A stretch of DNA of 64,000 nucleotides from a virus, in IMG/VR virus record IMGVR_UViG_3300045747_000694, positions 42,165 to 106,164 of that record, one strand, 5' to 3'. Position numbers and translations under genes: made by a program. Shown one piece after another: positions 7,601 through 58,600 of the stretch. Positions within the stretch are counted from its first letter, which is position 1, and each line of letters begins with the position of its first letter. A model generated the notes under the pieces. That model worked only from the letters and a program-made list of their open reading frames with translations. It was not told where the DNA came from and did no database searches.

Positions 7601-7705
7601 AGTGGTATGAAGTCCGTGAGCTACCAGAGCCTGGTGGGCATCCTCATCGAGGCGATCAAGGGCCTGAAGGCCGAGATCATGGAGCTCAAGGAGGACTTGG
7701 CATGA
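1625..7705 (+). CDS. giant tail fibre/tailspike (2,026 aa) with collagen-like region and C-terminal S74 intramolecular-chaperone auto-processing domain
   Basis: ATG 1625 follows GAGGGAAG. Long beta-rich Gly/Thr/Ser sequence. A ~30-aa motif [22 protein letters not shown] recurs at least 7 times. The Gly-X-Y region lies at ~5350-6125. The C-terminus SDYRLKSDI...[17 protein letters not shown]...[16 protein letters not shown] matches the endosialidase/tailspike S74 chaperone domain. Confidence 0.85.
5350..6125 (+). repeat. collagen-like Gly-X-Y triplet-repeat region (~258 aa) inside the fibre gene, with an internal duplicated block
   Basis: Continuous [19 protein letters not shown]... triplets. 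The block [33 protein letters not shown] occurs twice (~5430 and ~5880). Confidence 0.85.
7337..7705 (+). other. peptidase S74 / intramolecular chaperone domain of the fibre (predicted autocleavage at the Ser of SSDYRLK)
   Basis: Consensus SDxRLKxNI...GxIAQEV...LIEAIKxL recognised by eye in the last ~120 aa. Confidence 0.75.
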
Positions 7706-27150: not shown

Positions 27151-27416
27151 TCTGTGGGATCGACGCCAGCCTTCCAGGCCTGACGCACCTTCTTCGGGTA
27201 GTGCTGGGTGGAGCTGCGTCTCACGATACCTGGAGGCATACGGCTGGTGCCGCAGAGGAGCAACACGGTCCCAGGGTGAGGGTTGGGGGCTGCGTAGTGG
27301 CTGGTCCAGGACGTGGTGTAGGGCGTCACCACGCCGTTGTCGATGCAGGCCACTCCCGCGGCGCAGACCCACTCCTCGAAGGTGAGGCCCTCTCGGTTCA
27401 CCGTGTCGCGGCTCAC
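27135..27416 (-). CDS. hypothetical protein
   Basis: Complete ORF. Confidence 0.4.
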   Translation of the reverse strand: MSRDTVNREGLTFEEWVCAAGVACIDNGVVTPYTTSWTSHYAAPNPHPGTVLLLCGTSRMPPGIVRRSSTQHYPKKVRQAWKAGVDPTEWRTT

Positions 27417-27658
27417 TTGTACCTCGCCTTCTCGACGGTCCCGAACTTCCTGACCCAGAGCTTAACGCCCTCGAAGAGGATGTCGTGGACACAGGGCAGC
27501 TTCCCTTCGCGGTCGTTGCAGCCCTCCCAGCAGTCGCAGTTGGCTTTGGCGATCCCCTGGGCTGTGAAGATGCGGGCCGCGAGGATGGTCTGCTTGGTGG
27601 CGCTCACGGCGGGTCCTTCCACCTCCGCACGAAGAAGCGGAGGTCGTCGAGGGGGCAC
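27413..27658 (-). CDS. hypothetical Cys-containing protein
   Basis: Complete ORF. Confidence 0.35.
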   Translation of the reverse strand: MPPRRPPLLRAEVEGPAVSATKQTILAARIFTAQGIAKANCDCWEGCNDREGKLPCVHDILFEGVKLWVRKFGTVEKARYK

Positions 27659-43704: not shown

Positions 43705-43890
43705 GTGTCACGGACTTCGGACAAGCGGCGCCGCGTGCGCGTCAACATGAGGATCCCCTCCGAACTGCTGGAGTGGGCGAAGGACTACGCCGTGGCCAAG
43801 AACAAGAACGTGACCCAGATCGTGGTCGATCACTTCACCGGGCTGAAGGAGAAGGCGAATGGCAACGGCAAGACCCCCCAGCATCGGTGA
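43705..43890 (+). CDS. ribbon-helix-helix (CopG/Arc-like) DNA-binding protein
   Basis: MRIPSELLEWAKDYAVAKNKNVTQIVVDHF. Confidence 0.5.
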   Translation: MSRTSDKRRRVRVNMRIPSELLEWAKDYAVAKNKNVTQIVVDHFTGLKEKANGNGKTPQHR

Positions 43891-44419
43891 CGAGAAGCCC
43901 GAGCTCGTGCTGGTGCGCGACTCGAAGCCGCTGCCCAAGTCGCGCACCGACATCCTCGCGGAGGTGAGCCACATCTTCGCGCTGGGTGGCGTGCAGAGGG
44001 TCATCATCGAGGTCGGGAAGCCCCTCTTCTTCGACCGCCTGGTCCCGAAGTCCGAGGTGGCCGAAGACGAGACGACGGAGGAGATCCCTGCCGACGCCGT
44101 CGACCTCTACGGCGCCATGAGGAACAACGAGCTCCTCAACTTCGAGCTCAAGTACGGCTCGATGAGCGGGCAGGAGGCGCTCTTCAAGGCCTGGCGACTG
44201 CTCTCCTCCCGCAAGCTGGCGGCGAAGGGGTTCCTCGTCTCCGACTTCCCCGCCCTGCGGGAATGGCTCGACCTCGGGGAGGAGGACTCTGTGGACGACA
44301 TCTTCGGCGTCCCCGTCTTCAAGCACGCAGAGATCCCCGCCGACGTCATCATCCTCGTGGCCGTCGATGCTGCCGACCCCGAGGACGTGAAGCTCTCCCT
44401 TCGCATCACCCTGGACTGA
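43859..44419 (+). CDS. hypothetical protein
   Basis: Complete ORF. Confidence 0.4.
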   Translation: MATARPPSIGDEKPELVLVRDSKPLPKSRTDILAEVSHIFALGGVQRVIIEVGKPLFFDRLVPKSEVAEDETTEEIPADAVDLYGAMRNNELLNFELKYGSMSGQEALFKAWRLLSSRKLAAKGFLVSDFPALREWLDLGEEDSVDDIFGVPVFKHAEIPADVIILVAVDAADPEDVKLSLRITLD

Positions 44420-44421
44420 CC

Positions 44422-44898
44422 ATGAGCGAGATCGTCAAGAAGGTTCTCGGAAGCGGCCTCATCGACAAGCACACCGCGGCCCTGATGGAGCAGTTCGGTC
44501 TGCTCGAGCCCGGCGCCTCCGACTTGGTGAACGAGGGTGCCCTCAAGGACGCCACCAAGGCCCAGATGGCGAAGCTGGCCGAGGACCTCGCCGTCACGGT
44601 GGAGCGAGAGCACAAGATCAAGGAGACCTACCTCGACCTCGAGCGCATCCGCTGGCCGGCGCGGGTGAGCATCGGCATCGACCTGGAACTCGGGTCGAAG
44701 ACCGCCATCATCGACTGCGTGATGGACCGCCACGGTCGCTACTTCTTCCGCTGGCAGGATGTGGACTCGAGCTGGTTCGTGCCGGGCCGCCGTCTCTTCC
44801 GGGAGGGCTTCGGCACGCACGAGATGATCATCGAGGCCACGCCGCTCTACATCGACGACAAGCCCGTGGCCATCCAGGTCACCGCGCAGGCGGTGTGA
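44422..44898 (+). CDS. hypothetical protein
   Basis: Complete ORF. Confidence 0.45.
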   Translation: MSEIVKKVLGSGLIDKHTAALMEQFGLLEPGASDLVNEGALKDATKAQMAKLAEDLAVTVEREHKIKETYLDLERIRWPARVSIGIDLELGSKTAIIDCVMDRHGRYFFRWQDVDSSWFVPGRRLFREGFGTHEMIIEATPLYIDDKPVAIQVTAQAV

Positions 44899-45185
44899 TG
44901 GAATGGGACCTGCCAACGTTGAAGCGGGAGGTCGAGGAGAAGACCCTCGACCTGGTGGCCTTCTACAGGGCCCGGGAGACGATCCGCCGGCGGGTGCTGG
45001 AGGTGAGGGACTCGCCCAGCCAGCTGACGCCGCTGCCGACGTGGAGCGGGACGGACGCGGTGCTGGGGAGCCTGGACCTCTCGATCCACGCGATGGAGCG
45101 GACCCTGACCGAGCTCAAGGGGATGCTGAGCGAGGCGCAGGCCGCGGCGCCGCGGCTCCAGGTGCTCGACGGAGGCCTCGAGTGA
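44895..45185 (+). CDS. hypothetical protein
   Basis: Complete ORF. Confidence 0.4.
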   Translation: MMEWDLPTLKREVEEKTLDLVAFYRARETIRRRVLEVRDSPSQLTPLPTWSGTDAVLGSLDLSIHAMERTLTELKGMLSEAQAAAPRLQVLDGGLE

Positions 45186-46554: not shown

Positions 46555-47073
46555 ATGAACACGCGCGCCTTCCACTCGATGATGCTGAAGCTGGCCTTCA
46601 AGCTGAACCCTCAGGGGAAGGCGGAGGTCAAGGCCGAGACCCACTTCGCGGCGGAGAAGCCGAGCTGGGACTCCTTCGTGAAGAACCTGAAGAGCACCAA
46701 CTTCAGGAAGGCCATCCTCGGCGCCGAGCAGGCTGATCCGAAGCTGAAGAAGTACGTGAAGAACTTCGGCGGCTACGTCTCCTCGAAGGACGAGCTGGCG
46801 CGCATCAAGTCGAAGGACTCCGGCAAGACGTACATCGTGAAGGACCTCCACAGCGGTCGCTGGGGCTGCAACTGCGGGGACTGGCAGTACATCCACTCGG
46901 TCAAGGGTGGGGACTGCAAGCACATCAAGTCCGTCAAGAAGTCGAAGCTGGTGAAGACCGCCATGCTCAACGTCATGGCGAGGGGCTTCACCGGCATGGC
47001 TCGGGTGCAGAAGCAGCGCGAGAAGGGCATCCAGGCGAAGCAGACGATGAAGGCGTTCAACGCCCCACGATGA
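46555..47073 (+). CDS. SWIM zinc-finger protein
   Basis: CNCGDWQYIHSVKGGDCKH (CxCxnCxH). Confidence 0.55.
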   Translation: MNTRAFHSMMLKLAFKLNPQGKAEVKAETHFAAEKPSWDSFVKNLKSTNFRKAILGAEQADPKLKKYVKNFGGYVSSKDELARIKSKDSGKTYIVKDLHSGRWGCNCGDWQYIHSVKGGDCKHIKSVKKSKLVKTAMLNVMARGFTGMARVQKQREKGIQAKQTMKAFNAPR

Positions 47074-47210: not shown

Positions 47211-47534
47211 ATGGCGACATTCACCGAGCTGCACGCAAGACTGGTCGACGCGAGGAACCGCAAGGCGGTTCTCCAGATGCTCGTCGAGCACATCGACAAC
47301 AACTTCCTCCCCACCGGGCCGGCGAAGGCCGAGCGGATGCTCCTCAACGACGAGAGGATCCCCGTCCCGCAGGCAATGTTCGAGGCGGTCATCGCCGACA
47401 CTCTCGACGCGGAGATCAAGCAGCTCGATCAGGAGATCGCCCGAGTCACCAACACCGAGCTCGCGCAGAAGGGCGCCGCCCCGAAGGCCGAGCCGGAGAA
47501 GAAGACCAAGAAGTCCCACAAGGAGGCAACGTGA
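47211..47534 (+). CDS. hypothetical protein
   Basis: Complete ORF. Confidence 0.45.
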   Translation: MATFTELHARLVDARNRKAVLQMLVEHIDNNFLPTGPAKAERMLLNDERIPVPQAMFEAVIADTLDAEIKQLDQEIARVTNTELAQKGAAPKAEPEKKTKKSHKEAT

Positions 47535-48088
47535 GCGAAGAGACGGCAGCAGTGGTGGAGGTTGGCAGCCCCGGGACCATCGAGGTCCCTCCGGACGCCG
47601 CCGAGAGGAAGCCCACCAAGCTCGAGGAGAAGCGCCGGAAGATCTACATCGACCGGATGCAGCGCCACATGGCCAAGGGGATGACGGCCGAGGCGGCGCA
47701 CATGAAGATCCAGGAGGAGGACTACGATCGCCTCCCCATCGAGGCCAAGCTGAAGCGCCTCGAGGTGGCCTGCATGCAGGCCATCCAGCGTCTCGCCCAG
47801 GAACTGGGCAGCCTCCAGAACAACGACCAGGTCATCGCCGACGCGATGGACTCCAACTTCCGCGCCATCACCAAGGCGCTCGTGAAGCTCGGCGTCTCCG
47901 GCGAGGAGCAGGTTGCCTTCCTCAAGGAGGCCGAGGTCGAGATCAAGGCCGACCGCGAGAACCGCCAGAAGGTGATGGAGCAGCACGCGGCGGCCATCAA
48001 GGAGGAGGCGGAGAAGGCTCTCGTCGAGAAGACCATCGACCAGCCCGGCGAGGCCACCGTGCCCGACGGCGCCACGGAGTTCGCATGA
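47531..48088 (+). CDS. hypothetical protein (GTG start)
   Basis: Complete ORF. Confidence 0.4.
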   Translation: MSEETAAVVEVGSPGTIEVPPDAAERKPTKLEEKRRKIYIDRMQRHMAKGMTAEAAHMKIQEEDYDRLPIEAKLKRLEVACMQAIQRLAQELGSLQNNDQVIADAMDSNFRAITKALVKLGVSGEEQVAFLKEAEVEIKADRENRQKVMEQHAAAIKEEAEKALVEKTIDQPGEATVPDGATEFA

Positions 48089-48624
48089 GCAGCTTCGACA
48101 ACGCCCTGACCGTCATCCTGAAGCACGAGGTGGACCCCGTCGCCGGGCCGTACTGCAACGTGCCGGAGGACAAGGGTGGCCCCACCTGCTACGGCGTCAC
48201 CATCGCCGAGTACCGCCGCTTCAAGCCCGGCGCGACGGTGGAGGACCTGAAGAACATCCCGATGGCGGACGTCTACACCATCTTCAAGGCCAACTACTGG
48301 CAGCCGCTCGGTCTCGACGGCGTGATCGACCAGACGGTGGCGACGAAGCTCGCCGACATCGCCATCAACGGTGGTCCCGGTGCTGCCTCCGCCCTCGCCC
48401 AGCGCGCCTGCATCGCCTGCGGACAGCCGCTGAACGTGGACGGCTGGATCGGGCCCAAGACGCGGGACGCCATCAACAGCATCCCGCCGAAGGACTTCAT
48501 GGTGGCCCTGAAGGAGCAGCAGCGGGACTTCTACCTGGACATCGTCCAGCACGACAAGACCCAGCTGACCTTCCTCTACAACTGGATGCGCCGGGCCGAG
48601 TGGCCGCTGGCGGGCCAGGCCTGA
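48085..48624 (+). CDS. endolysin: GH108 lysozyme-like domain plus PG_binding_3 domain
   Basis: ILKHEVDPVAG...DKGGPTCYGVT (GH108 N-terminal signature) and a C-terminal peptidoglycan-binding-like half. Confidence 0.7.
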   Translation: MSSFDNALTVILKHEVDPVAGPYCNVPEDKGGPTCYGVTIAEYRRFKPGATVEDLKNIPMADVYTIFKANYWQPLGLDGVIDQTVATKLADIAINGGPGAASALAQRACIACGQPLNVDGWIGPKTRDAINSIPPKDFMVALKEQQRDFYLDIVQHDKTQLTFLYNWMRRAEWPLAGQA

Positions 48625-48635
48625 GAGGTAAGGAA

Positions 48636-48662
48636 GGAGGGGGCCCTTGCGGGCCCCCTCCC
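48636..48662. terminator. hairpin ggagggggcccttgcgggccccctcc between convergent genes (preceded by GAGAGGTAAGGAAG)
   Basis: 11-bp GC stem with a 4-nt loop. Confidence 0.55.
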
Positions 48663-48666
48663 GTTG

Positions 48667-49734
48667 CTACTCGATGTCGATGACGCGGCCGAACTGGCCC
48701 GCACGCACCGACCGAATGCCAGCCTGCTTCGCAGTCTCATCCACCGCCAGCTCGGACATCGCGGCGAGAAGGCTACGAACTTCATCCGTGGAGTGATTCA
48801 CCTGCTCCGCGGTGAGCTGCCAGTCGGTCTCTCCATTCCCGCCCTGCTTCAGGAACCGAGCGCGGATGGACTTGATGGTGTCCTCGAAGGTCGAGGTCCC
48901 CGAGAAGTTGACCGCCGAGAAGGTCTCGAAGGCCTCGAAGAGAGGCCGGAGGTTCTTGGGGTTCAGCTTGCCGTTGGTCTCGAGCAACCTCTTGGCCTGC
49001 GAGGCTGCCTCTCCGAGCTGCTGATGCATCATGACGGAGACCTCACTCACCCAGTGGTTGAGGTCCCGCCGCACCCTGTTCTGCTCCTGGAGCAGTGTCT
49101 CGGCATCCAGGGTGGTCATCGACTCCACGCCCTCGAGCGGCGTCATCTTGAACATGCGCCACTCGAAGTTGTACCGGCTACGCAGGTGCGAGACGTCCGG
49201 GTACAGGGTGCGGTTGATGGCCTCCTGCTGCTTCACCCACCCGTCGAGCTCCTTCACCTTCGCGGCGTATGCGTACGGGGCGACCTTGTTGGCCTCCTTG
49301 TCCGCGATGTTGCGCGCCTGCTGGGTGAGCTTCTCGAGCTGCTCCTCCTTGAAGCGAGGGTAGCCCGCGATGAGGTCGTCGACTGCGACGTCCCACTGCG
49401 CCTTGAACTCCTGGAGTCTCCTCAGCACCCCGCGCAGCGCGTGGTAGGAGACGTACTTCGCATTCCCGATGGGGAAGGGAACGGAGCGGTTGTCGAGGAA
49501 CCTCCTCGCATGCCCCTCGATGAACTGGAGACGCTCCTGGGCCTGACGTGGCAGGAGCTTCTTGTGCCCGATGTAGAAGGCACTCTTGTCGACCTCGTCG
49601 ATGAGGAGGTCGCTCTCGTTCATCTTCTTGTTCGCGGTCCAGCGACCGATGTAGAGGTGAAACAGCGTACCGGTGTCAAAGAGAACGCGAGTGATGCCGC
49701 TCTCCTGCCGGACGGACACAGGAGGGTTAGGCAC
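48667..49734 (-). CDS. hypothetical protein (355 aa)
   Basis: Complete ORF. Confidence 0.45.
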   Translation of the reverse strand: MPNPPVSVRQESGITRVLFDTGTLFHLYIGRWTANKKMNESDLLIDEVDKSAFYIGHKKLLPRQAQERLQFIEGHARRFLDNRSVPFPIGNAKYVSYHALRGVLRRLQEFKAQWDVAVDDLIAGYPRFKEEQLEKLTQQARNIADKEANKVAPYAYAAKVKELDGWVKQQEAINRTLYPDVSHLRSRYNFEWRMFKMTPLEGVESMTTLDAETLLQEQNRVRRDLNHWVSEVSVMMHQQLGEAASQAKRLLETNGKLNPKNLRPLFEAFETFSAVNFSGTSTFEDTIKSIRARFLKQGGNGETDWQLTAEQVNHSTDEVRSLLAAMSELAVDETAKQAGIRSVRAGQFGRVIDIE

Positions 49735-49736
49735 CC

Positions 49737-49940
49737 CTACCCCCCGGTGTGCGAGTGATCGTGCGACTCGATCTTCTGGCTGCCCTCGGGCTTCATGTCG
49801 CGCTTCTCCACCTTGCCGAGAGCGTCCTCGAGGGACTTGGTCTCCGCGAGGCAGGCGTTGCCCACGAAGCCACGGGTCGGCTCGGCCTTGACCGTGCCGT
49901 CCTTGGCGATGGTGACCTTGATCTCCTTCAGCGTTGCCAT
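49737..49940 (-). CDS. DUF2997-like small protein
   Basis: MATLKEIKVTIAKDGTVKAE...GNACLAETKSLEDALGKV. Confidence 0.5.
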   Translation of the reverse strand: MATLKEIKVTIAKDGTVKAEPTRGFVGNACLAETKSLEDALGKVEKRDMKPEGSQKIESHDHSHTGG

Positions 49941-49949
49941 GTTTCCTCC

Positions 49950-50504
49950 TTACAGCGTGATGACCCGGCCGTGCCGGATGCGGGTGTCGTTGCGCTGCGC
50001 TGCCTGAACATCTTCGTCGGAAGCCAGGCGCCGGCGCGGGCCGGTCTGCGCGGGGACTCCGGCGTCCATCTTCTCGAGCTCCTCACCGGCGCGGAAGCGC
50101 CTCATGATCCCGGCCACCTCGCTCTGGATGAGGTCGAGGTGCTTGCAGTGCCGGGGCTTGGGCAGCCCGGTCTCCTTGTCCTTGCGCTGGAAGACCCAAC
50201 CCATGCAGTTGCAGCGCAGGGTCCCGTCTTCCTCGAGGCGCGTCTCGTAGTTCACGATGAAGCCGCCCCTGGGCTGGCTCGAAGCGAACGCCCAGGTGTA
50301 GACCGGCTCCCCGTACTCTCTCTTGGCAGGATCGGTGTTGCTGGTGTCCCTGCCGGTCCTGACACCACGGCGTGGCATGATGATCTTCCTCCTCTGGCGT
50401 GAGGGGAGAGAGGCCGGCACCTCCTCTTCGAAGGGCCGGACCCTCTCCTCGTAGAGCCTGTGCGAGAGGTCGGCGATCTGGTCGATCACTCGCCTTCTCG
50501 GCAT
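49950..50504 (-). CDS. SWIM zinc-finger protein
   Basis: CNCMGWVFQRKDKETGLPKPRHCKH. Confidence 0.5.
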   Translation of the reverse strand: MPRRRVIDQIADLSHRLYEERVRPFEEEVPASLPSRQRRKIIMPRRGVRTGRDTSNTDPAKREYGEPVYTWAFASSQPRGGFIVNYETRLEEDGTLRCNCMGWVFQRKDKETGLPKPRHCKHLDLIQSEVAGIMRRFRAGEELEKMDAGVPAQTGPRRRLASDEDVQAAQRNDTRIRHGRVITL

Positions 50505-50510
50505 GGCTCC

Positions 50511-50939
50511 CTACCCGTAGCGCTGGAAGGTGAGCTCGACCTCGCCGGTCTTGAGCGCCACGCGGTTGGCCACCTGGTACCCCTTCTCGACGCAGTTCTT
50601 CACGGTGACCTTCTCCGCGTAGTACTGCGCGACGAGGTTCTGGTGCTCCATGGGGAAGCCGTCCATGTCGACGTGGACGTCGTACGTCCCCTCCTTGTTG
50701 CGCTCGTAGCCGAGGTCGTTGGACGCCACGTAGCGGCCGAGCTTCTCGCCCTGCGCCGCCTTGCGGACCACGATGTTGGCCTTGAGGTTCGACTTCTGCC
50801 CAGCGTAGTTGAGGAGGTCCACCTTCTTGTCCCCATGGGACTCGACCTTGCCCTCACCGAAGTGCTGGACCAGCGCTGCCACCAGCTCAGCCTCGAACTT
50901 CTGCTGAGCCTGGATGTTCAACTTCACGTAGTGGGACAC
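50511..50939 (-). CDS. DUF1257 (Ycf35-like) protein
   Basis: MSHYVKLNIQAQQ..., overall Ycf35 pattern. Confidence 0.55.
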   Translation of the reverse strand: MSHYVKLNIQAQQKFEAELVAALVQHFGEGKVESHGDKKVDLLNYAGQKSNLKANIVVRKAAQGEKLGRYVASNDLGYERNKEGTYDVHVDMDGFPMEHQNLVAQYYAEKVTVKNCVEKGYQVANRVALKTGEVELTFQRYG

Positions 50940-50985
50940 TGCGTTCTCCTTTCGTGAGACAGGATGCTACTGCGGGGGTACGACA

Positions 50986-52581
50986 TCAGGCGTCGATGCG
51001 GCGACCAGCGGTGCCGACCTGCGTCTGGGCGACGACCTCCTTGCGATTGGCCGGGCGGGTGCGAGCAGCGCACCAGTTGCGGAGGAGCTGGAGCCTCTCC
51101 AGCATCGTCTTGGCGATGGGCTGCGTGGAGTCGAAGGCGTCCTGGAGGTCCACGGCGTTGAGGTCCCTGCCGTGGTGGTAGGCGACCCGCATGGCCTGCT
51201 CGATGGCTCCGTCGATCTCGGCGCCAGTGAAGTCCTGGCTGGTCTCGCCGGCGAAGTGGTCGAGGTCGATCTTGGGCTTCGCGGTACCGTTGACCTGGTA
51301 GAGCGCCTCCCGGTTGCGCCGCTTGATGTGGATGGCGAGGATCTCCTTCCGCTCCTTCTTGGTCGGGAGGTCGATGGAGAACATCTCGTCGAAGCGGCCC
51401 TTGCGGAGGAGCTCCGGGGGCAGCATCGTCACGTCGTTGGCGGTGGCCACCACGAAGACCGGGCTGGTCTTCTCCTGCATCCAGGTGAGCAGCGTGCCGA
51501 GCACGCGCGCCGAGACGCCGGAGTCACCGGAGCCGCCTGAGGCACCCGCGGCCCCCTTCTCGATCTCGTCGAGCCAGAGGACGCAGGGGGACATCGCTTC
51601 CGCGAGGCGGATGGCCATGCGGATGTTGGCCTCGGAGGAGCCGACGAGGGACTGGTAGAGCTTGCCCATGTCGAGCTTCAGCAGCGGCTTGCCCAGCGCG
51701 GCCGCGGCCACCTTCGAGAAGAGCGACTTGCCGGTGCCGGGAGGGCCGACCAGCAGGACGCCCTTGGGGTACGCCAGGCCGAAGTCGAGCGCCTCCTTCG
51801 TGAAGGCGCGCTGGAGTGGCCGCACCCAGTCCTTCAGCTCCTCCATGCCGCCGATGACCTCGAGGCCGGCGGGCACGTCGCGGATGTACTCGAGCAGCTG
51901 GCTCTTGCGCAGCGCGAAGCACTTCTCCCGGATGACGATGGCCGGGTCCCACAGGTCCTCGAGCTTCCGCTTCCCCTGCTTCCGGGGCTCGATGATGGAC
52001 AGCGTGAAGGCGTTCTCAGCCTCCTGCGTGGTGAGCCCCTTGGCGGCGTCGATGAGGAGCTTCTTGCGGTCCGCATCGGGACGCTTGTCGGCGGTGATGC
52101 CGGAGGCCTCGAAGATGCCGTCCAGCACCGCGGTGAGGCTCTCCTCGTCCGGGAGCGGAGCCTCGAGCAGCGTGATCTCCTTCTCGACCTCCGGCGGCAG
52201 GACGATGACGGGGGAGAGGATGATGATCATCTTCCTCGTCAGCTTCATCTCGGGGATGACGTCCAGGAGCAGCGCCTGCACGTTGAGATCCGGGAGGAAG
52301 TGGTGGAACTGACGGAGGACCAGGATGGAGTCCTGCGGGAGGTCCTTGATCTTCTCCAGGGCGGTGGTCGGCATCCCGGTTCCCGTGAGGGGAGCCGTGG
52401 TGCGCCTGGAGTCCTCGATGATGCCCTTGTTGATGGTCCAGAAGTACATCTTGCGCTTCAGGACGTCCGCCGCCTGGCGGATCTCCCGCAGCGTCCTCTG
52501 GTCCTCGAGGCTCTGGAGGTAGATGGCGGCGTAGCCCGCCTTCCCTCTCACCTCGAGGAGGTCGATCAGCTTCTCGGTCAC
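50986..52581 (-). CDS. AAA+ ATPase (Ycf46-like)
   Basis: Walker A GPPGTGKS, Walker [10 protein letters not shown], a second region with arginine finger. ~530 aa. Confidence 0.8.
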
Positions 52582-52919
52582 GTGGTCTTCTCCTCTTCCT
52601 TCTTGCTGTAGATCTTGGGGTTCCCCCAGAACCAGGGGTGGGGCATGGCGATGAACGGGACGACGTGCACCATCCGCACCTTGCAGTGGGGGCAGTGGAA
52701 CGGCTCCTCGGCGCCCCGGTAGTTATCGGGGTCGTAGTCCTCGCCGACGGCCTCGTAGTAGTTGACGAGCTCGGCGCAGGACCAGCACGGCGACTGGATG
52801 ATGTGCAGCGCCGCGATGTACGCACGCTGCTTCTCGATGCCGGTCAGGAGCCGCGGCTTGTCGAGGTAGTCCTGCGCCATCCGTGTTGCGTTGGCGATGA
52901 TCTCCGGCTTGGCTGCCAT
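52578..52919 (-). CDS. hypothetical protein
   Basis: CWSC...CPHC. Confidence 0.45.
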   Translation of the reverse strand: MAAKPEIIANATRMAQDYLDKPRLLTGIEKQRAYIAALHIIQSPCWSCAELVNYYEAVGEDYDPDNYRGAEEPFHCPHCKVRMVHVVPFIAMPHPWFWGNPKIYSKKEEEKTT

Positions 52920-53372
52920 CTATCCTCCGAACAGCTTCGAGGCCTTCTCGTCCTCGGTCATGGGTGGTGGCGGCCACTTCGATGGGCCCCAGAGGCCCTT
53001 CAGGTCGCCGGCGCAGATGAGGGTCAGCTCGTGAGGCGTCGGTCGACGCCACGCGCCGTGCTTCTCGTAGATGGGCTCCGCCCCTTCGTCGACGCCTTCG
53101 GAGGTGCGTCCGTCCGTCCAGAACGGCGTCCCTTCCCAGACCCAGAAGCCAGGCTCCTCTGGAGCGAGGCCAGTGGGTCCTGCTTCGTCACGACCGAGCC
53201 CGGCATCGAGGTCTCCCTCGACTCCGTACCCGACGCCGTGGATGAGGAACGAGCCTCCCCCGATGGGAACGAGGACGAGAGCGTGTTCCTTCTTCGCCTC
53301 TTCGGCCTTCTGGCACTCCTCACACTCTTCGATCGGATGGCCGTGCTTCTTGCAGCGACTTCTGTTGGTCAC
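52920..53372 (-). CDS. hypothetical protein
   Basis: Complete ORF. Confidence 0.45.
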   Translation of the reverse strand: MTNRSRCKKHGHPIEECEECQKAEEAKKEHALVLVPIGGGSFLIHGVGYGVEGDLDAGLGRDEAGPTGLAPEEPGFWVWEGTPFWTDGRTSEGVDEGAEPIYEKHGAWRRPTPHELTLICAGDLKGLWGPSKWPPPPMTEDEKASKLFGG

Positions 53373-53746
53373 GTGGACCTCAAGATGCCGGAGACGATGG
53401 CGTTGATCTCCTTCAGCGCCCTCTCTGCGGCCTCGATCTCGCCGTTCTGGCTCTCCGTCCAGTTGATGATGTTCTGGAGGTCAGCCTTGGCGACGAGGAA
53501 CTTGTCCTTCCTGACCCTGATGGGCATGGCATCGCAGAGGGACTCGGGCCAGCCGAGCGCCTTCTTCACCATGTTGCCGCCCTGCGCTGCCTGGAGGCAG
53601 TCGACCTTCGTCTTCCCGTAGGTGACGACGTGGGTCATGTGCTCCGACTTCTTCGTGTCGCGCTCGTAGGCGACCATGATGACCTGGTCGAGCTTGAACT
53701 CCCTGGCGATGTCCTTCACCACTCGAATCGGGATGCGCTTGTTCAT
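53369..53746 (-). CDS. hypothetical protein
   Basis: Internal Met MNKRIP. Confidence 0.4.
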   Translation of the reverse strand: MNKRIPIRVVKDIAREFKLDQVIMVAYERDTKKSEHMTHVVTYGKTKVDCLQAAQGGNMVKKALGWPESLCDAMPIRVRKDKFLVAKADLQNIINWTESQNGEIEAAERALKEINAIVSGILRST

Positions 53747-54030
53747 GGTGCGTGCTCCGGATCGACGTTGGGCCCCTTCGGCTTGATGGAGCCGGCCAGG
53801 CGGAAGAGCTCCAGCAGGTTGGTGCCGCACCACGGGCAGAACGTCACCACCAGCCCGCGGTCCGACTCCTTCATCTTGTACGTGACGCCCAGGCGGATGT
53901 TCTTGCCCGTCCGCATGTGGGTGAGGACGAGAGCGGTGAGCCCCTTGCCGTGGTTGGCCTCGGGGTTCAGCCTCTCGTCGAGTCGAGTGCAGAAGCTGCG
54001 ACGAGTGCACTTGGGCCGATGCTTAGCCAA
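53743..54030 (-). CDS. hypothetical protein (TTG start after GGAGG)
   Basis: LAKHRPKCTRRSF... Confidence 0.35.
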   Translation of the reverse strand: MAKHRPKCTRRSFCTRLDERLNPEANHGKGLTALVLTHMRTGKNIRLGVTYKMKESDRGLVVTFCPWCGTNLLELFRLAGSIKPKGPNVDPEHAP

Positions 54031-54574
54031 GCGGAACCTCCTTGCAGGGGTTGGGGCCCGTGTGCTGTGGGCAGTCGCACTGCCAGCCCTCTGGCCACGG
54101 CTGCCCGTTGGCGAGCTTGCCCTCCCGACAGGAGCAGCCGGACCAGTTGCCGTCTCCGAGGTCGATGCCCTGGCAGTTGACGGGGCATGCAGCCGGCGGC
54201 TCACCGTAGCGACAGGTCATGCAGCCGACCTGCTGGTGAGTGGGGCAGGGGCTCTTCTCCCAGCCGAGCAGCTCCCAGAAGAAGCGGACCTCGGCCTCGA
54301 GAGCTGCCTCGCGAGAGGTGAAGACGGCGATCTGGCCCTCGTAGGCAACGACCTGACGGAAGGCGCCGTCCTTGATGACGAGACGGATGGCGAGGCCGGA
54401 CTCGAGAGCAGAGCGAACCGTCCAGCCCACCTCACTGCTGACCTCCTCGAACTCGACGTGGGAGGCGCGCTTCACGGTGGTCACCTTGGCCCCAAGGGTC
54501 TCGGCGATGCCGTCGTGGTAGATGCCGTCTACTGAGCCGTCAGCGGTGACGCGGACCTTGAAGGTCTCCTTCAT
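54023..54574 (-). CDS. hypothetical protein with Cys-rich C-terminus
   Basis: Internal Met MKETFK. Confidence 0.4.
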   Translation of the reverse strand: MKETFKVRVTADGSVDGIYHDGIAETLGAKVTTVKRASHVEFEEVSSEVGWTVRSALESGLAIRLVIKDGAFRQVVAYEGQIAVFTSREAALEAEVRFFWELLGWEKSPCPTHQQVGCMTCRYGEPPAACPVNCQGIDLGDGNWSGCSCREGKLANGQPWPEGWQCDCPQHTGPNPCKEVPLG

Positions 54575-54855
54575 GGCTCGGCCTTCTCGTACGTGGCGGC
54601 GAAGATGTCCCCCTTGCAGGGGTAGATCTCGCCCTTCACGCCCGTGATGAGCATGTCTCCACGCTGCATCTTCATGGTGCCCTCCAGCGTGGTGACCAGG
54701 TAGCAGTCGTCGTTCTCGTGCGTGATGGGGTGGCCGTTGTAGACGAAGGACCACGGATACCCACCGATGAGGCCACGGCTTACCGAGATCCCGTAGGCGA
54801 CGAGCTCGTCGAAGGTGATGGCTTCGATCACAACCGGCTTCTTGCGGAACTTCAT
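54571..54855 (-). CDS. hypothetical protein
   Basis: Complete ORF. Confidence 0.45.
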   Translation of the reverse strand: MKFRKKPVVIEAITFDELVAYGISVSRGLIGGYPWSFVYNGHPITHENDDCYLVTTLEGTMKMQRGDMLITGVKGEIYPCKGDIFAATYEKAEP

Positions 54856-55472
54856 GACTTCCTCGCTCCGAAGACCTTCACGATGTTGTCGAAGATCTCC
54901 TTGTCGGTGACGGCGATGAACGGTTCTCCACTGGTGACGCTGAGCCAGCCGATCTTCTTCCTGTCGTAGTCGGCGACGGGGTCGAAGATCTGGGTGCCCT
55001 GCGGGTTCTCCTTACACTGCTGCTTGCCCCGCGCCACGAGGACGATGACCTTGGCCACCTGGTCCTCGTCGCCCTTCCGGCAGATGAAGTAGACCGGGGT
55101 GTCGCCAGGCTTCGGCAGCGTGCTCTTGTCGCCACGCTTCTTCACGGTGGGGTCGTAGTTGGAGTTCCCCCGCGACCACTTGTTGAGCTCGATGTCCTTG
55201 GCGTCGACCGTGATGGACCCGATGACGAGCTTCTTGGCCTTGCGGAGGTTGATGATCTCCTCGAGGGCCTTGGCCGGGGCGCCGAACTCGTACTCGGCGG
55301 AGCCCATGTACTCGAAGCCGAAGAGCTCGTGGAGAACGTCCCAGGCCAGCTTCGAGATCCCCGACCCGCCACCGCCGAAGCTCATGGTCTGGGCGAGCTT
55401 GCTGAACTTGTCCGACTTCGGCGGGCGAGTGATGACCTGCAACAGCCAGCCGCGGTACCCTTCGTCAGTCAT
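54852..55472 (-). CDS. hypothetical protein
   Basis: Internal Met MTDEGYRG. Confidence 0.4.
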   Translation of the reverse strand: MTDEGYRGWLLQVITRPPKSDKFSKLAQTMSFGGGGSGISKLAWDVLHELFGFEYMGSAEYEFGAPAKALEEIINLRKAKKLVIGSITVDAKDIELNKWSRGNSNYDPTVKKRGDKSTLPKPGDTPVYFICRKGDEDQVAKVIVLVARGKQQCKENPQGTQIFDPVADYDRKKIGWLSVTSGEPFIAVTDKEIFDNIVKVFGARKS

Positions 55473-55546
55473 GGTTGGGATGTAACAGAAGAGCCCGACA
55501 GAACCTTGCGGTCCCATCGGGCTCCCTCTGCCTGTTGGTGGTTGGA

Positions 55547-55963
55547 CTACAGCGCCCTGACGCTCTTCCCCTTCACGGCCGGGGTGAGGTGTCGCTGGTC
55601 GAGAACCGTGGTGGAGCTTCGGTAGTCGGGGCAGTGCTTGTCGTAGTTCCGGTTCAGGCACCTCATGTGCTTGTCCCGGAACTTGTTGCGGACGGCGAGG
55701 TAGCGGCGACGGCTGCCGCTCTCGTCGTAGATGAGGAGCATCGACTCGCCACAGCTGTGGCAGACGAACTCGATGCGCCCCTCTCCGTCCCTCGCGTACT
55801 CGTCGTCATCCGTCAGGAAGTGCAGGTGGACCTGAGGGGATCCAGCAAGGAACTCGACCTTGAACAGCTGGCTCGCGTGACCGCAGCCAAAGACCTGCGC
55901 TCCCATGTGTGCCTCCTTGCGTGGCTTCATTGTGACGCCAGGGGGCTCAACGTTGGAAGGCAT
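55547..55963 (-). CDS. hypothetical Cys/His-containing protein (start uncertain)
   Basis: Complete ORF. Confidence 0.35.
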   Translation of the reverse strand: MPSNVEPPGVTMKPRKEAHMGAQVFGCGHASQLFKVEFLAGSPQVHLHFLTDDDEYARDGEGRIEFVCHSCGESMLLIYDESGSRRRYLAVRNKFRDKHMRCLNRNYDKHCPDYRSSTTVLDQRHLTPAVKGKSVRAL

Positions 55964-55971
55964 TCGTTCAC

Positions 55972-57204
55972 CTAGTCCTCGATGTCGATGATGCGGCCAG
56001 GAAGGAACCGCTTCTCGGGTGTGATGATCTCCTTCTGTGTGGGCTCTTGTGGGACAGCCGCCATTCCCGTATCGGCGCTGAGGACCTCCCCGTACAGGTT
56101 GCGAAGGTCCTCATCCGAGATGCCGTTGCGGTCGACGTACTGGCGAGAGGTCTCGTCCGCTCCGACGGCGAAGTCGATGCCGATGTAGTCGGCGGCCCGA
56201 GGCAGCCGGATGGTGGCCTCGACGTTCATGACCCCATGCCGCCGGAGCCGCTCCATCGTTGCTTGTGCTTCTGCTTCGATGCGCGCTCGCGCCTGCGGGG
56301 TGTCCCGCTCTCCGACGAACCCCTGCAAACGCTCAGCGAGAGCACGCTGAGCGAAGGCGATGGAGCCGGCGGCATCTCCTACGGAAGGAAGGGTTGGAGG
56401 CTCCTCCGGTGCCGCGGTGTACTGCTCGTAGAAGATGTCGTTGTTGACGTTCATCGCTGCACGGAGGTTCTGCTGGCGAGCAGCCTCGGCTTCGCGGCCC
56501 CCGGCGAGCAGTCGTGTCTGCTGAGCTTCTTGCAAGAACTCTCTCGGTACCTGCATCGCGCCCAGCATGGTCCTCCGGGCAGCATCCTGCTGCTCTCTCA
56601 TCCGGGCTTCGTCTGCGGGCGAGGCCGTCATGGGTCGGAAGATCTCCATCAGGAGCTGAGACCCTCCCCGCTGCGGAGTGGGGCGCTCGAGGGCGCGAGC
56701 CTGGTCCCAGATCTCGAGAGGCACGGGGAGGATCTCGGTACGCACTCTCTTGCGGCGAGCGTACTCGATGCAGTTGGCAGTCCCTCCTACCGACCCGTTC
56801 CAGACGGCAAGGAGGAGGGAGGCATTGTCCACCATCCAGGCGTTGCGACGGTAGAGGAGGTTGGCGCGGTACTCGTGGGTGTCGGTAACGACGTGAACGC
56901 TGTCGGCCTCGTTGAGGAGGCGCTGGTAGTGACGCCTCGAGGCGTCAGGCCACCGGCTGTCCCACCCGTGGAAGGGCACGACAGCAGTCCACTTGATCCT
57001 CTCCTCGATGCAGATCTCCGCCGCCCACTGGTCCACTCCGAGCGCCATGCCGGAGAGGATCATCAGCTCATCCCCCGTGCTGACCCTGTCGGCCTGCTCA
57101 CGGAAGGCAGTACGAAGCACCGCCTTCACGTTCAGGTAGATGGGATTCGGAAGGTAGTAGCCGCCAAGCTTCGGCGGCCGGTGACCTGTGATGGCGACGA
57201 TCAT
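55972..57204 (-). CDS. YpsA/DUF1273-type SLOG-domain protein with Gln/Ala/Arg-rich C-terminal extension
   Basis: MIVAITGHRPPKLGG matches the YpsA MKVLAITGYKPFELG. Confidence 0.5.
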   Translation of the reverse strand: MIVAITGHRPPKLGGYYLPNPIYLNVKAVLRTAFREQADRVSTGDELMILSGMALGVDQWAAEICIEERIKWTAVVPFHGWDSRWPDASRRHYQRLLNEADSVHVVTDTHEYRANLLYRRNAWMVDNASLLLAVWNGSVGGTANCIEYARRKRVRTEILPVPLEIWDQARALERPTPQRGGSQLLMEIFRPMTASPADEARMREQQDAARRTMLGAMQVPREFLQEAQQTRLLAGGREAEAARQQNLRAAMNVNNDIFYEQYTAAPEEPPTLPSVGDAAGSIAFAQRALAERLQGFVGERDTPQARARIEAEAQATMERLRRHGVMNVEATIRLPRAADYIGIDFAVGADETSRQYVDRNGISDEDLRNLYGEVLSADTGMAAVPQEPTQKEIITPEKRFLPGRIIDIED

Positions 57205-57205
57205 C

Positions 57206-58600
57206 TCACAGTCTCTCGTTCACGCACTCGTTGGGCAGCTTGTCCGTGCGAATGTAGTTGTCCGGGTCGATGGCAGGGAAGTCTAGCGCGTTGGTGTCGT
57301 CCCCGTCCGTGACGTACCTGCGCCCCTTGTACTCGACTCGCCAGACCTGCGGCCACAGCTTCGGGTCCGTGAGGGTGGCGAGCATCTCCTTGGTGAGGCC
57401 GGAGTTCACGTTGGCGATGAAGACCAGCACACCCTTCGTGTCGTACTGGTAGAGGCCGACGCTCTTGATGCCGCCGGCGCGGGAGCCCTTCTGCGACCGC
57501 TCTCCGTAGCCCTTGTCCGGGTCCCAGATGGCGATGAAGTCGTCCTCGAAGGTCGGCTTCAGCTTGGCGCAGGCGGTGCCGGGACGGTCCGGCTTCCCCT
57601 TGAAGTTGTACGACTTGTCGCCGTAGCCCGGAGCGTCCGGGTCGATGACGACGAAGCCCTCCCAGTTGTTCTTCTTGGCGAACTCGACGGCGTCATCGGG
57701 GGTAGGGAAGCTAAGACGAACGAGCGCCTCGACGTGCTTGCTGCTGGCACGCTCCTCGAGGTTGTCGATGTTGATGACCCGCTCGCGCATGGGCTGCGTG
57801 CTGACGAGGTCCACGCCGCCGAAGAACGGGATGTCCCAGCAGTAGAAGAAGGGCCACAGCCCACTCTTCTCCATGTCGGCCACGGCCTTCGGGGTGAGGC
57901 TCTTGATGTAGCTCTGGGCGAGGTCGAACCGCTCCTTGGCGATCTCGCCCTTGAAGCGGACCTCGTCCTCGACCACGAGCTCCCCCAGCAGGATGGTGCG
58001 CGGAGGGATGTGGGGCTCGATGGCCGCGATGAGGTGCGGGAACCTGTCGTCCCAGGTGAACTCGGTGTCGGTCTCGTCATCGTGCTGACGGAGCATCCGG
58101 CGCGAGTAGATCTGGAGGTCCCCATCGTTGTTCTTGCAGAGGATGGTCGCCATGCCGTTGCGCTTGCGCGTGTACCAGCACAGCCCCGCCCTTGCCTTCT
58201 TCTCGATGCCGGCTCCCATCGAGTTGTCTGGCTTGTAGAAGCTGAGCGACAGTGGGAGGTTGTCGAAGTCGACCTTCGACTCCACGATGGGGTCGAGGTA
58301 CGCCCCACCCGTGTCGGTGGAGATCGTCTCCCGGTAGCCCTCCCAGTTCTTCTTCCTGCACATCTCCCTGGCCCGATCCAAAGCGTAAGCGGAGGGACTG
58401 AGGGCGTTCGCCTTGCCGACGTTCACACCCGCGAAGTGTTCGGTGACGGTCTGCATCTTGCCGCCAGCCAGTCCCCACGTGGTGCGTACGGAGTTCCCGA
58501 TCACCTCCAGCTCCCAGATGCGGGTGCCGGTGCGGGAGTGAAGCTGGTGGAAGGTTCTCTTCTCGCCCTTCCAAGCTGCGCTGCGCTGCTCGAAGTTCAT
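57206..58600 (-). CDS. ATP-dependent (T7-type) DNA ligase-like nucleotidyltransferase
   Basis: EGFVVIDPDAPGYGDKSYNFKGKPDRPGTACAKLKP matches T7 ligase EGLIIKDP...WWKMKP (motifs IV and V). Putative motif I reads KRNG instead of KxDG. Confidence 0.5.
   Translation of the reverse strand: MNFEQRSAAWKGEKRTFHQLHSRTGTRIWELEVIGNSVRTTWGLAGGKMQTVTEHFAGVNVGKANALSPSAYALDRAREMCRKKNWEGYRETISTDTGGAYLDPIVESKVDFDNLPLSLSFYKPDNSMGAGIEKKARAGLCWYTRKRNGMATILCKNNDGDLQIYSRRMLRQHDDETDTEFTWDDRFPHLIAAIEPHIPPRTILLGELVVEDEVRFKGEIAKERFDLAQSYIKSLTPKAVADMEKSGLWPFFYCWDIPFFGGVDLVSTQPMRERVINIDNLEERASSKHVEALVRLSFPTPDDAVEFAKKNNWEGFVVIDPDAPGYGDKSYNFKGKPDRPGTACAKLKPTFEDDFIAIWDPDKGYGERSQKGSRAGGIKSVGLYQYDTKGVLVFIANVNSGLTKEMLATLTDPKLWPQVWRVEYKGRRYVTDGDDTNALDFPAIDPDNYIRTDKLPNECVNERL

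Follow-up and report, generated by a model that had tools for sequence, protein, structure and literature searches.

A phage-encoded Ycf46-like AAA+ ATPase in a conserved gene block shares its C-terminal tail with candidate partner proteins

Ycf46, Ycf35 (DUF1257) and DUF2997 proteins are conserved in cyanobacteria, plastids and phages. The Ycf46 ATPase of cyanobacteria has been linked solely to CO2 use and to KaiC and circadian timing. The N-terminal MSH motif of DUF1257/Ycf35 was described (PMC13060386), and cyanobacterial clusters of DUF2997, ycf35 and fed7 were reported without ycf46 (PMC4284462). Full-text literature searches returned no paper on a phage module of this kind, or on any link between Ycf46, Ycf35 and DUF2997. 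An earlier, sequence-only reading of the DNA discussed here regarded the three as a trio best known from cyanobacteria and plastids. This is only partly right: the adjacency of the genes typifies phages, non-cyanobacterial bacteria and archaea. In cyanobacteria, ycf46 hardly ever adjoins a DUF1257 or DUF2997 gene, and DUF1257 was encoded within 8 kb of it in only one (L094) of the approximately 40 loci fetched.

The window, that is, the whole 64-kb stretch of viral DNA analyzed, contains a phage form of this gene set. The four open reading frames reported earlier at positions 49737–52581 have the coordinates and order ascribed to them, and all lie on the minus strand: the Ycf46-family AAA+ ATPase (50986..52581, 531 aa), the DUF1257/Ycf35-like protein (50511..50939, 142 aa), a SWIM-motif zinc-finger protein (49950..50504, 184 aa) and the DUF2997 protein (49737..49940, 67 aa). 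A fifth gene of the same tightly packed block, overlooked in that reading, encodes a DUF3150 protein (48667..49734, minus strand, 355 aa). The spacing between the block genes is 2–46 nt, and their GC3 of 0.88–0.96 marks them as coding. Genes for a ribonucleotide reductase, a ligase and a YpsA-like protein lie on either side of the block. The viral setting is supported by the head-decoration protein, ribonucleotide reductase and DNA ligase encoded in the window, the closest relative of which is a 198-kb IMG/VR phage contig; a search for near-identical DNA in isolated phages found none. Scanning positions 47500–58000 for promoters and terminators gave no signal beyond the shuffled expectation. 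Compared with its cyanobacterial and plastid relatives, the locus is alike in the full-length homology of the ATPase, the MSH motif of the Ycf35-like protein and the Pfam match of DUF2997. It differs in being phage-encoded, in the adjacency of the trio, in the added SWIM and DUF3150 genes and in the end of the ATPase, which reads GRxIDA in the phage protein and ...SDRIQRQ in cyanobacterial Ycf46.

The assignment of the ATPase to the AAA+ class is supported by a match to PF00004 (E = 4.3e-30), and its Ycf46-like character by homology to cyanobacterial Ycf46 over the full length, the N-terminal half included. In BLASTP, it is 37% identical to Fischerella thermalis P0231 (UniRef name 'ycf46') over residues 14–514 (E = 4e-106). 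Encoded by a phage and not by a cyanobacterial or plastid genome, it is a viral homologue, distinct from the organellar gene. Its active-type domain belongs to the classic clade of AAA proteins and carries the sole Walker A motif of the protein (GPPGTGKS, at residue 279), the Walker B motif VLWLDEIEK and the pore loop S-L-V-G. Conservation extends to the LVG of the pore loop and to the arginines in the second region of homology, with R393 and R396 invariant. The N-domain (approximately residues 1–210) is of alpha/beta type and resembles a degenerate second AAA domain in which Walker A and Walker B are completely lost; a MIT domain, sought at the N-terminus, was not found in this alpha/beta, AAA-like region. 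Clustering with ordinary ClpX/FtsH-like ATPases, considered earlier as an argument against the Ycf46 assignment, is not a clear-cut criterion here: the AAA domain alone is nearest to the Cdc48/FtsH type, whereas the full-length protein is Ycf46-like. The nearest solved relatives are the substrate-threading unfoldases VAT, p97, NVL, Rix7 and Pex1.

The remaining genes of the trio were also called correctly. The DUF1257 protein matches PF06868 with 37.1 bits (cut-off 22.2); it starts with GTG, continues with M-S-H-Y and so keeps the Ycf35-type MSH motif, and it has a TBP-like alpha+beta fold with a curved sheet. The DUF2997 protein matches PF11211 with 52.4 bits (cut-off 24.1, E = 4.8e-14) as well as phrog_23133, and its relatives adjoin Ycf46-like ATPases at many phage, bacterial and archaeal loci. 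For the SWIM protein, a Pfam search gave no match at E <= 0.1, and the assignment depends on the CxCxnCxH motif itself, which is present as CNC and CKH separated by 19 residues. The ligands C98, C100, C120 and H122 are invariant across four diverged orthologues, and the signature is kept in 148 of 149 representatives of the family. Comparison by hhalign with a Pfam-positive SWIM protein encoded elsewhere in the window gave an equivocal match (E = 0.001, probability 21%), with the ligands in register. This second protein (46555..47073, plus strand; Pfam SWIM, 20.1 bits, cut-off 19.6) had been proposed as a partner of the module. That proposal is not upheld, as the gene lies on the opposite strand in a different gene block, its product lacks the tail described below and no link to the module was seen. 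The DUF3150 protein matches PF11348 over profile positions 5–161 of 257 (44.2 bits, cut-off 24.9, E = 1.9e-11), and DUF3150 is linked to the ATPase at six other loci (L005, L007, L009, L010, L014 and L017). A tblastn search against plasmids and isolated phages gave no DUF3150 match, and no solved relative of it was found. Upstream of the ATPase gene, a YpsA/DprA-like SLOG protein is encoded (55972..57204, minus strand, 410 aa; PF06908, E = 2.3e-16). Its SLOG domain (approximately residues 1–165) is followed by some 240 aa of low-complexity linker and then by a C-terminal tail, a layout kept in L006 and L017.

The arrangement recurs in other phages. L005, L014 and L017 have the full order AAA-DUF1257-SWIM-DUF2997-DUF3150, and L006 and L015 the same order up to DUF2997, while the ATPases of these five are 46–50% identical to that of the window. 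Such order in independent contigs, despite ATPase identities of only 46–48%, indicates that the arrangement does not result from chance. The gene block was found again in metagenomic phages of approximately 180–210 kb. Isolated phages, as well as many archaea and non-cyanobacterial bacteria, have simpler forms of the module. Rhizobium phage RHph_I4 and Aeromonas phage HJ05 carry an AAA-X-DUF1257-DUF2997 set upstream of replication genes. In the five contigs mentioned above, a gene for a small conserved protein (MKETFKV...FFWELL), identified with phmmer, abuts the ATPase gene directly upstream; its orthologue in the window (54023..54577, minus strand), which has no tail, is separated from the ATPase gene by three extra genes. 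In the bacterial chromosomal loci, the tailed partners encoded beside the ATPase are membrane-anchored helix-hairpin-helix proteins of the ComEA type.

A new observation of this analysis is that the ATPase, the SWIM protein, the DUF3150 protein and the YpsA/DprA-like protein share a common end, G-R-[VIR]-I-[DT]-[ILA]. It reads G-R-R-I-D-A in the ATPase (50989..51006), ...HGRVITL in the SWIM protein, where it follows a variable linker (codons 49953–49970), ...FGRVIDIE in the DUF3150 protein (48670–48690) and ...PGRIIDIED in the YpsA-like protein (55975–55998), all on the minus strand. The tail was never seen on DUF1257 or DUF2997. R527 of the ATPase, which forms the Arg column of the tail, is invariant in an alignment of 114 sequences. 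An end of the type [GSTAN]R.[VILM]x[AVILMT] is present in 101 of 120 ATPase homologues and in 5 of 554 window frames, and R-x-[VILM]-[DEQTSNK]-[VILAMF] ends 71 of 77 DUF3150 homologues. A strict tail regex matches 86 of 149 SWIM-family representatives, and more match by eye. In the YpsA-like proteins, the tail is retained across linkers of 30–240 aa, and linker and tail were found in 4 of 65 viral members of the family, at least three of these four from module-bearing genomes. Only three of the 655–805 stop-to-stop frames of the window match the tail motif, namely those of the YpsA-like, SWIM and DUF3150 proteins. Tail-like ends at 43859–44419 (...LRITLD) and 44895–45185 are unconserved in orthologues and were taken as chance. 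It might be argued that all these genes are mere neighbors in an early or middle region of the phage genome and that the likeness of their ends is accidental or compositional. The motif is indeed short, and an unbiased test of similarity between the ATPase tail and neighbor tails was noisy, with p <= 0.05 in 14 of 89 loci. However, gene order kept at 46–50% ATPase identity, conservation of the tail over 77–149 homologues per family, its confinement in the window to module genes and its general absence from YpsA-like proteins of genomes without the module already disfavor this explanation, which we consider extremely improbable.

The tails also co-vary within genomes. The ATPase and its neighbors end with SRAxxLEL in L007 and L009, GRK.. 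in L015, GLxQxE. in L019 and L020, and GGRx[LIV]DF in L045, L061 and L075. In L026, an ATPase ending GGRTLDF has beside it seven paralogues in a row, all with the end ERx[ILV]D[LIF]. Partner tails were found at 13 of 59 loci with DUF1257 or DUF2997 and at 4 of 98 without them (odds ratio 6.6, p = 9e-4). It was considered whether the tails are signals of sorting or turnover, i.e., degrons for a host protease, virion-packaging signals or signals for localization to a phage compartment, with the ATPase sharing the fate of the other proteins. Short C-terminal signals are well known, e.g., the ssrA and MuA tags and cargo-loading peptides, and the 198-kb relative points to a large phage as the source of the window. 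Nevertheless, the tails track the tail of the ATPase genome by genome, which a signal determined by the host would not do, and the same logic applies to the membrane-anchored proteins encoded beside the ATPase in bacterial chromosomes. This explanation is thus improbable.

The mechanism that we prefer, although we regard it as falling just short of probable, is that the ATPase is a substrate-threading remodeler to which a shared C-terminal peptide recruits clients or adaptors, and that it acts on DNA-associated complexes. In this proposal, the block at 48667–52581 together with the YpsA-like gene would represent a widespread AAA+ system of the Ycf46 type in its phage form. Its ATPase, tandem-AAA-like, would combine an inactive D1-like N-domain with an active D2 of Cdc48/FtsH type; it would most likely form a hexamer, through the pore of which proteins are threaded and thereby remodeled or unfolded. 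The usual aromatic residue of the pore loop is absent (S-L-V-G), which counts against threading. DUF1257, with its TBP-like fold, and DUF2997 might serve as tail-less core cofactors, and the SWIM, DUF3150 and YpsA/DprA-like proteins as clients or adaptors. The recruitment peptide would be C-terminal, of the pattern G-R-hydrophobic-hydrophobic-acidic-hydrophobic, and presented on a flexible linker. Additional acidic residues are tolerated after the motif, as would suit a peptide that occupies a groove or extends a sheet by a strand. The AF2 monomer model shows the tail of the ATPase itself, which exits from the D2 (exit) face, as disordered, in keeping with a linear motif; docking of this tail in cis was rejected on the same grounds. 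It is possible that it competes for the site used by the other tails, resulting in auto-inhibition or in ring-to-ring contact. As to the target, the predicted nucleic-acid binding of the partners, the ComEA-type partners of bacteria and the gene location suggest that it is probably a complex associated with DNA and serving phage replication, recombination or host take-over. For the SWIM and SLOG domains, such binding is a prediction at the level of the family. The role in nucleic-acid remodeling or host manipulation put forward in the sequence-only reading is plausible.

The receptor of the tails could, however, be a third party. The ATPase and the tailed proteins would then dock by the same peptide onto a DUF1257–DUF2997 complex or onto a host protein, with the tails labeling alternative caps or cargo of a single platform. 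The 20S core is recognized in this way by HbYX tails common to proteasomal ATPases, Blm10/PA200 and Cdc48, and HslU tails activate HslV. By analogy, a tail leaving the D2 exit face, as HbYX, HslU and p97 tails do, could contact such a platform. DUF1257 and DUF2997 are always tail-less, the curved TBP-like sheet of DUF1257 is typical of a binding platform, and the enrichment of partner tails at loci encoding DUF1257 or DUF2997 fits a receptor composed of them equally well. Against this, tailed ATPases occur with neither protein encoded within 10 kb, in mycobacteriophage Corndog (gp96, ...VRVLDL) and at approximately 20 IMG/VR loci ending RxLDL, and in L019 and L020 the ATPase and its neighbor share tails although both proteins are missing; these cases also weaken DUF1257 or DUF2997 as the sole receptor. 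Moreover, the one to three residues beyond the motif disfavor a pocket reading a free C-terminus, and no peptidase was found among the window genes scanned. A third-party receptor is hence possible but unlikely.

A further issue is the radical SAM enzyme. An NrdG-like radical SAM gene (Fer4_12) is present in the AAA/DUF2997 neighborhood at at least 19 loci. Against TIGR02491 (cut-off 126.1), four of five examples scored 99–117 bits and that of L011 scored 69 bits, all below the cut-off. The role of this enzyme in many related systems is not explained by the threading and tail model. It can be proposed that an NrdG-like activase modifies the Gly/Arg tail, DUF1257 or DUF2997, and that the ATPase handles the products; the phage studied here would have a reduced form of the system, drawing on the enzyme of its host or on one from another locus. 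Besides the gene neighborhoods, this proposal is favored by tails that often begin with GG in radical-SAM lineages and by the ferredoxin gene adjoining cyanobacterial DUF2997-ycf35 pairs (PMC4284462). Yet an HMM built from six module-linked enzymes found no match in the 64-kb window, and in the closest relatives no such gene was found within 7–10 kb of the module. The tail does not fit the glycyl-radical motif RVxG[FWY], and glycyl radicals are unstable in the oxygenic cells in which Ycf35 and Ycf46 operate. DUF1257 was considered as a glycyl-radical carrier because of the likeness of its D-[LVI]-G-[FYW] site to that motif and because the enzyme is often encoded nearby. This candidate was rejected: the site is unconserved and its Gly is gone in L061 and L030, which are radical-SAM loci, and the window lacks the enzyme. 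We regard radical-SAM modification as quite improbable.

If threading and tail-mediated recruitment are correct, then candidate clients can be named in any genome by a sequence rule based on the shared tail. We propose, tentatively and somewhat short of what could be called probable, a lineage-specific Ycf46 "tail code", in which the ATPase and its clients end alike, so that clients can be read from the genome sequence in phages, bacteria and archaea. Here the clients would be the SWIM, DUF3150 and YpsA/DprA-like proteins, a role that arrays of membrane-anchored, DNA-binding proteins of the ComEA type would have in bacteria. If the tail code is true, it would define a previously undescribed AAA+ system remodeling DNA-associated proteins and would make the mechanism of Ycf46, Ycf35 and DUF2997 accessible to experiment for the first time. 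If the clients are DNA-bound, then phages and bacteria would have in this system their own equivalent of the Cdc48- or Vps4-type extraction machines. Such a system might be relevant to phage replication, to host take-over or, at the bacterial loci, to the handling of incoming DNA.

Several known systems can be compared with this one. Among defense systems, the AAA domain matches IetA models of IetAS (Gao_Iet) and SGI1 SgiAT (PADLOC, 81 bits; NCBIfam IteA, 74.8 bits). These scores are far below the cut-off of 510, the ATPase is phage-encoded, and no protease-family or IetS match, i.e., no IetS/S8 protease partner, was found among the eight module and flanking proteins scanned. With the TRIP13 match similarly weak and both matches confined to the AAA domain, a defense-system assignment was rejected. 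Closer are the homologous ATPases, 31–35% identical, of RHph_I4 (gp084-087), HJ05 (gp65-68) and Corndog (gp96). In the first two, DUF1257 and DUF2997 follow downstream, a different protein of approximately 210 aa replaces the SWIM protein and DUF3150 is missing, while Corndog has the ATPase alone. Among solved structures, the best sequence matches of the phage ATPase are to NVL/Rix7, VAT/p97 and Pex1/Pex6. In several tandem-AAA unfoldases, one ring is catalytically weak or inactive, and the C-terminal tail of p97 binds adaptors. The phage protein differs from them in its D1-like domain devoid of Walker A and B, in having no N-terminal double-psi barrel and in its much smaller size (531 aa). 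The resemblance to Vps4/CdvC with the ESCRT-III MIM, and to ClpX with the XB peptide of SspB, is one of working principle only. Vps4/CdvC is a classic-clade AAA+ ATPase whose varied partners share a short C-terminal motif recruiting them before threading. In contrast, the phage ATPase has a degenerate AAA fold as its N-domain in place of MIT, its partners are not ESCRT-III-like, and the shared motif is strand-like rather than helical and is carried by the ATPase as well.

The module consists of five co-directional genes on the minus strand at 48667-52581, spaced by 2-46 nt, and their third-position GC of 0.88-0.96 in a window of 64% GC is typical of real genes. They encode a 531-aa AAA+ ATPase (50986-52581; PF00004, E = 4.3e-30), a 142-aa DUF1257 protein read from a GTG start as MSHY (50511-50939; PF06868, 37.1 bits against a cut-off of 22.2), a 184-aa CxC...CxH protein (49950-50504), a 67-aa DUF2997 protein (49737-49940; PF11211, 52.4 bits), and a 355-aa DUF3150 protein (48667-49734; PF11348, 44.2 bits). 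The sequence-only reading had listed the first four, at 49737-52581, and missed the DUF3150 gene. Its AAA, DUF1257, and DUF2997 calls agree with the Pfam profiles, and its SWIM call for the CxC...CxH protein, though there is no Pfam match, is supported by zinc ligands that are invariant in four orthologues of only 24-30% identity, kept in 148 of 149 family representatives, and, in a tentative profile alignment (hhalign E = 0.001), in register with those of the other SWIM protein of the window (46555-47073), which does match Pfam. The latter (plus strand; 20.1 bits against 19.6), conserved in the metagenomic phage contigs L014 and L017, lies inside a lysis/structural block on the strand opposite to the module and does not carry the tail described below; no connection between the two was seen.

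The window is of phage origin. Among its products are a head-decoration-like protein, a class II ribonucleotide reductase, an ATP-dependent DNA ligase, a YpsA/DprA-like SLOG protein (55972-57204, minus strand), and an endolysin-like protein. No near-identical DNA was found among isolated phages; a 198-kb IMG/VR contig comes closest, its ATPase being 96% identical. The stretch from the YpsA-like gene to the module contains two small conserved genes (54571-54855 and 54852-55661, minus strand); an orthologue of the first was seen only in this closest relative, orthologues of the second both there and in L017, and neither product matches a PHROG. Three small genes at 52578-54010 (minus strand; 113, 150, and 213 aa, the 113-aa protein with a CPHC zinc-ribbon-like motif) separate an MKETF...FFWELL gene from the ATPase gene and look like an insertion, because the two abut in contigs L005, L006, L014, L015, and L017. 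Elsewhere in the window, a single 2026-aa ORF of high GC3 downstream of the head-decoration-like gene (1625-7705, plus strand) probably encodes a giant virion protein, and a transposase-like ORF is located at 26239-27492 (minus strand; phrog_10081, E = 1.3e-19).

The order AAA-DUF1257-SWIM-DUF2997-DUF3150 recurs in L005, L014, and L017 (large metagenomic phage contigs, 101-197 kb), and its first four genes are kept in L006 and L015 (209 and 154 kb); the ATPases of all five are 46-50% identical to that of the window. An IS605 OrfB/Cas12f-like TnpB gene adjoins the module in L015 (8346-9584). Inserted between DUF2997 and DUF3150 in L017 (13220-16342) are rIIA-like (HATPase_c_3, 697 aa) and rIIB-like genes, the product of the second ending ..SKIIEVRGDNY, loosely tail-like. 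DUF3150 stands upstream of the ATPase in other phage lineages (L007, L009, L010); the isolated phages RHph_I4 and HJ05 carry AAA, a ~210-aa protein, DUF1257, and DUF2997 directly upstream of replication genes, and mycobacteriophage Corndog has the ATPase alone. A scan of prokaryotes, one genome per species, returned 80 loci, and AAA adjoining DUF2997, often with DUF1257, was common in Planctomycetota, Clostridia, Actinomycetota, Paenibacillus, methanogens, and others. About 40 of the 80 loci were cyanobacterial ycf46, with DUF1257 within 8 kb only in L094. For cyanobacteria, the literature describes a DUF2997-ycf35-fed7 cluster that lacks ycf46 (PMC4284462). The earlier picture of the trio as a cyanobacterial module is therefore only partly right: DUF2997 and ycf35 do cluster there, whereas ycf46 is rarely adjacent.

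The chief new result is a short C-terminal peptide, G-R-[VIR]-I-[DT]-[ILA], that four proteins of the window share. Spotted by reading the protein ends, it closes the ATPase (...AGRRIDA), the SWIM protein (...HGRVITL), the DUF3150 protein (...FGRVIDIE), and the YpsA-like protein (...PGRIIDIED); a regular expression for the motif, applied to 655-805 stop-to-stop frames of the window, matched only the last three. Within-family conservation, architecture, distribution, and within-genome co-variation show that the tail belongs to these families and did not arise by accident. The ATPase pattern is present in 101 of 120 homologues against 5 of 554 window frames, and all 114 aligned sequences keep its Arg, though a variable linker precedes it; AF2 models this tail as disordered (pLDDT 54 and 41). 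DUF3150 homologues end F-x-R-[VLF]-[VI]-[DE]-[VL] in 71 of 77 cases, and at least 86 of the 149 SWIM representatives (90-1062 aa) end [YF]-G-R-[VI]-[IV]-[DE]-[LI], often followed by D. In the YpsA-like layout, a linker of 30-240 residues joins a conserved SLOG domain to the tail. Some 60 of 65 phage YpsA-like proteins are short, tail-less, and without the module within 10 kb; linker and tail occur in only four, at least three of them from module-bearing contigs. Within genomes, the ends vary together: ATPase SRAATLDL with DUF3150 SRAS[MV]LEL in L007 and L009 (in L009 also a 106-aa protein, SRAAMLEL), GRKVGTG.. with neighbours GRKLKVK.. and GRTLYL.. in L015, GLRQMELA with one neighbour GLIQLEID in L019 and L020, GGR[AT L][LIV][DE]F with one neighbour [SG]GR[VI][LI]D[FYV] in L045, L061, and L075, and GGRTLDF with seven consecutive paralogues ER[NIKE][ILV]D[LIF] in L026. 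An unbiased, noisier score-based test gave p <= 0.05 in 14 of 89 loci. The tail was never found on DUF1257 or DUF2997.

Tail-bearing proteins in bacterial loci combine an N-terminal hydrophobic segment, basic residues, a ComEA-type helix-hairpin-helix (HHH_3), and the tail. The seven-paralogue array of L026 (2281-7323; sheep rumen bacterium RGIG6874) stands directly upstream of genes for an NrdG-like radical SAM enzyme, a Ycf46-like ATPase, and DUF2997; its members are mostly ~210-230 aa, with one 87-aa ORF, most have the hydrophobic segment, all seven end ERx[ILV]D[LIF], and the one paralogue tested has the ComEA-type HhH. Many bacterial and some phage versions of the module add the NrdG-like enzyme (strong Fer4_12 match; TIGR02491 69-117 bits, under the 126.1 cut-off), which was found neither in the window nor, in its nearest relatives, in the 7-10 kb around the module. 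Its gene was seen in AAA/DUF2997/DUF1257 neighbourhoods L007, L009, L011, L029, L030, L034, L036, L042, L043, L045, L050, L051, L057, L061, L075, L088, L090, and several of L163-L242, and no glycyl-radical enzyme was seen in them. Other ATPase clades end in NPF[IL], acidic ..EDDL, or cyanobacterial ..SDRIQRQ, and no partners sharing these ends were detected. The ending ..Q-E-x-x-N-P-F-[IL].. replaces the GR tail in L029, L031, L034, L036, L042, L051, L073, and L092; proteins of 620-1140 aa follow the ATPase in L031, L034, and L073. In the similar locus L043, with an ATPase end not of NPF type, an 888-aa protein and an Hsp70/actin-like ATPase precede DUF2997 and the radical SAM gene.

On its own, the AAA domain most resembles those of Cdc48/p97/VAT, FtsH, and proteasomal ATPases. 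The whole protein, its first 230 residues included, aligns with cyanobacterial proteins named Ycf46 in UniRef (37% identity, residues 14-514, E = 4e-106), which justifies the earlier label "Ycf46-like". The AF2 model, built with 114 homologues, is confident (pLDDT 92.3). Walker A occurs once, at residue 279, and profile-profile comparison places an LPPEL...LP..E...G(L/F)(T/S)xxE region of the N-domain weakly in register with the AAA domain (E = 0.049). The N-half is probably a degenerate, nucleotide-free AAA module, which would make the protein a pseudo-D1 plus an active D2, as predicted from fold and motifs. For one 809-aa homologue (P0008; 70% identity), the precomputed Pfam list gives an intein (PF14890). 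The ATPase shares its fold and motifs with ring-forming, substrate-threading remodellers. It is proposed that the tail would bind the ATPase, delivering clients or adaptors, and that the ATPase's own tail would compete with them. This is the simplest model, because the ATPase alone always accompanies partner tails and these track its own. Motif recruitment to classic-clade AAA+ proteins has precedents in the ESCRT-III MIM motifs, which bind Vps4 or CdvC, and in the XB peptide of SspB, which binds ClpX. The main rival places the receptor on a common third party, possibly a DUF1257-DUF2997 complex, much as HbYX tails dock on the 20S core and HslU tails on HslV; it is favoured by the enrichment of partner tails in loci with DUF1257 or DUF2997 (13/59 vs 4/98, Fisher p = 9e-4). 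Against it stand ATPases that keep the tail with neither protein nearby, and the tolerance of extra residues after the motif also speaks against a pocket reading a free C-terminus. The putative clients (SWIM and DprA/YpsA-like SLOG proteins, in bacteria ComEA-type HhH proteins) are predicted to bind nucleic acid, and the neighbours of the module include genes for replication and nucleotide metabolism; both point to a DNA-associated target, as a family-level expectation.

The gene content of the module is solid and the evidence for the tail strong; the proposed mechanism is that of an AAA+ remodeller with motif-recruited partners. A few phages in GenBank already carry annotations of the AAA/DUF1257/DUF2997 trio; in full-text searches, no work turned up on its function, on DUF3150, or on any radical SAM link, and the shared tail and extended membership appear undescribed in the literature searched. 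The IetAS defence system was rejected as an identity, as matches of the ATPase were weak and confined to the AAA domain and no protease was found among eight scanned proteins of the module and its flanks; so was the Vps4/MIT system, as the ATPase has no MIT domain. Literature on cyanobacterial Ycf46 offers physiological links only, namely to CO2 use, to KaiC as an interaction partner, and to an operon induced by stress. The window ATPase belongs, by sequence, to this same family, yet it is encoded by a virus.
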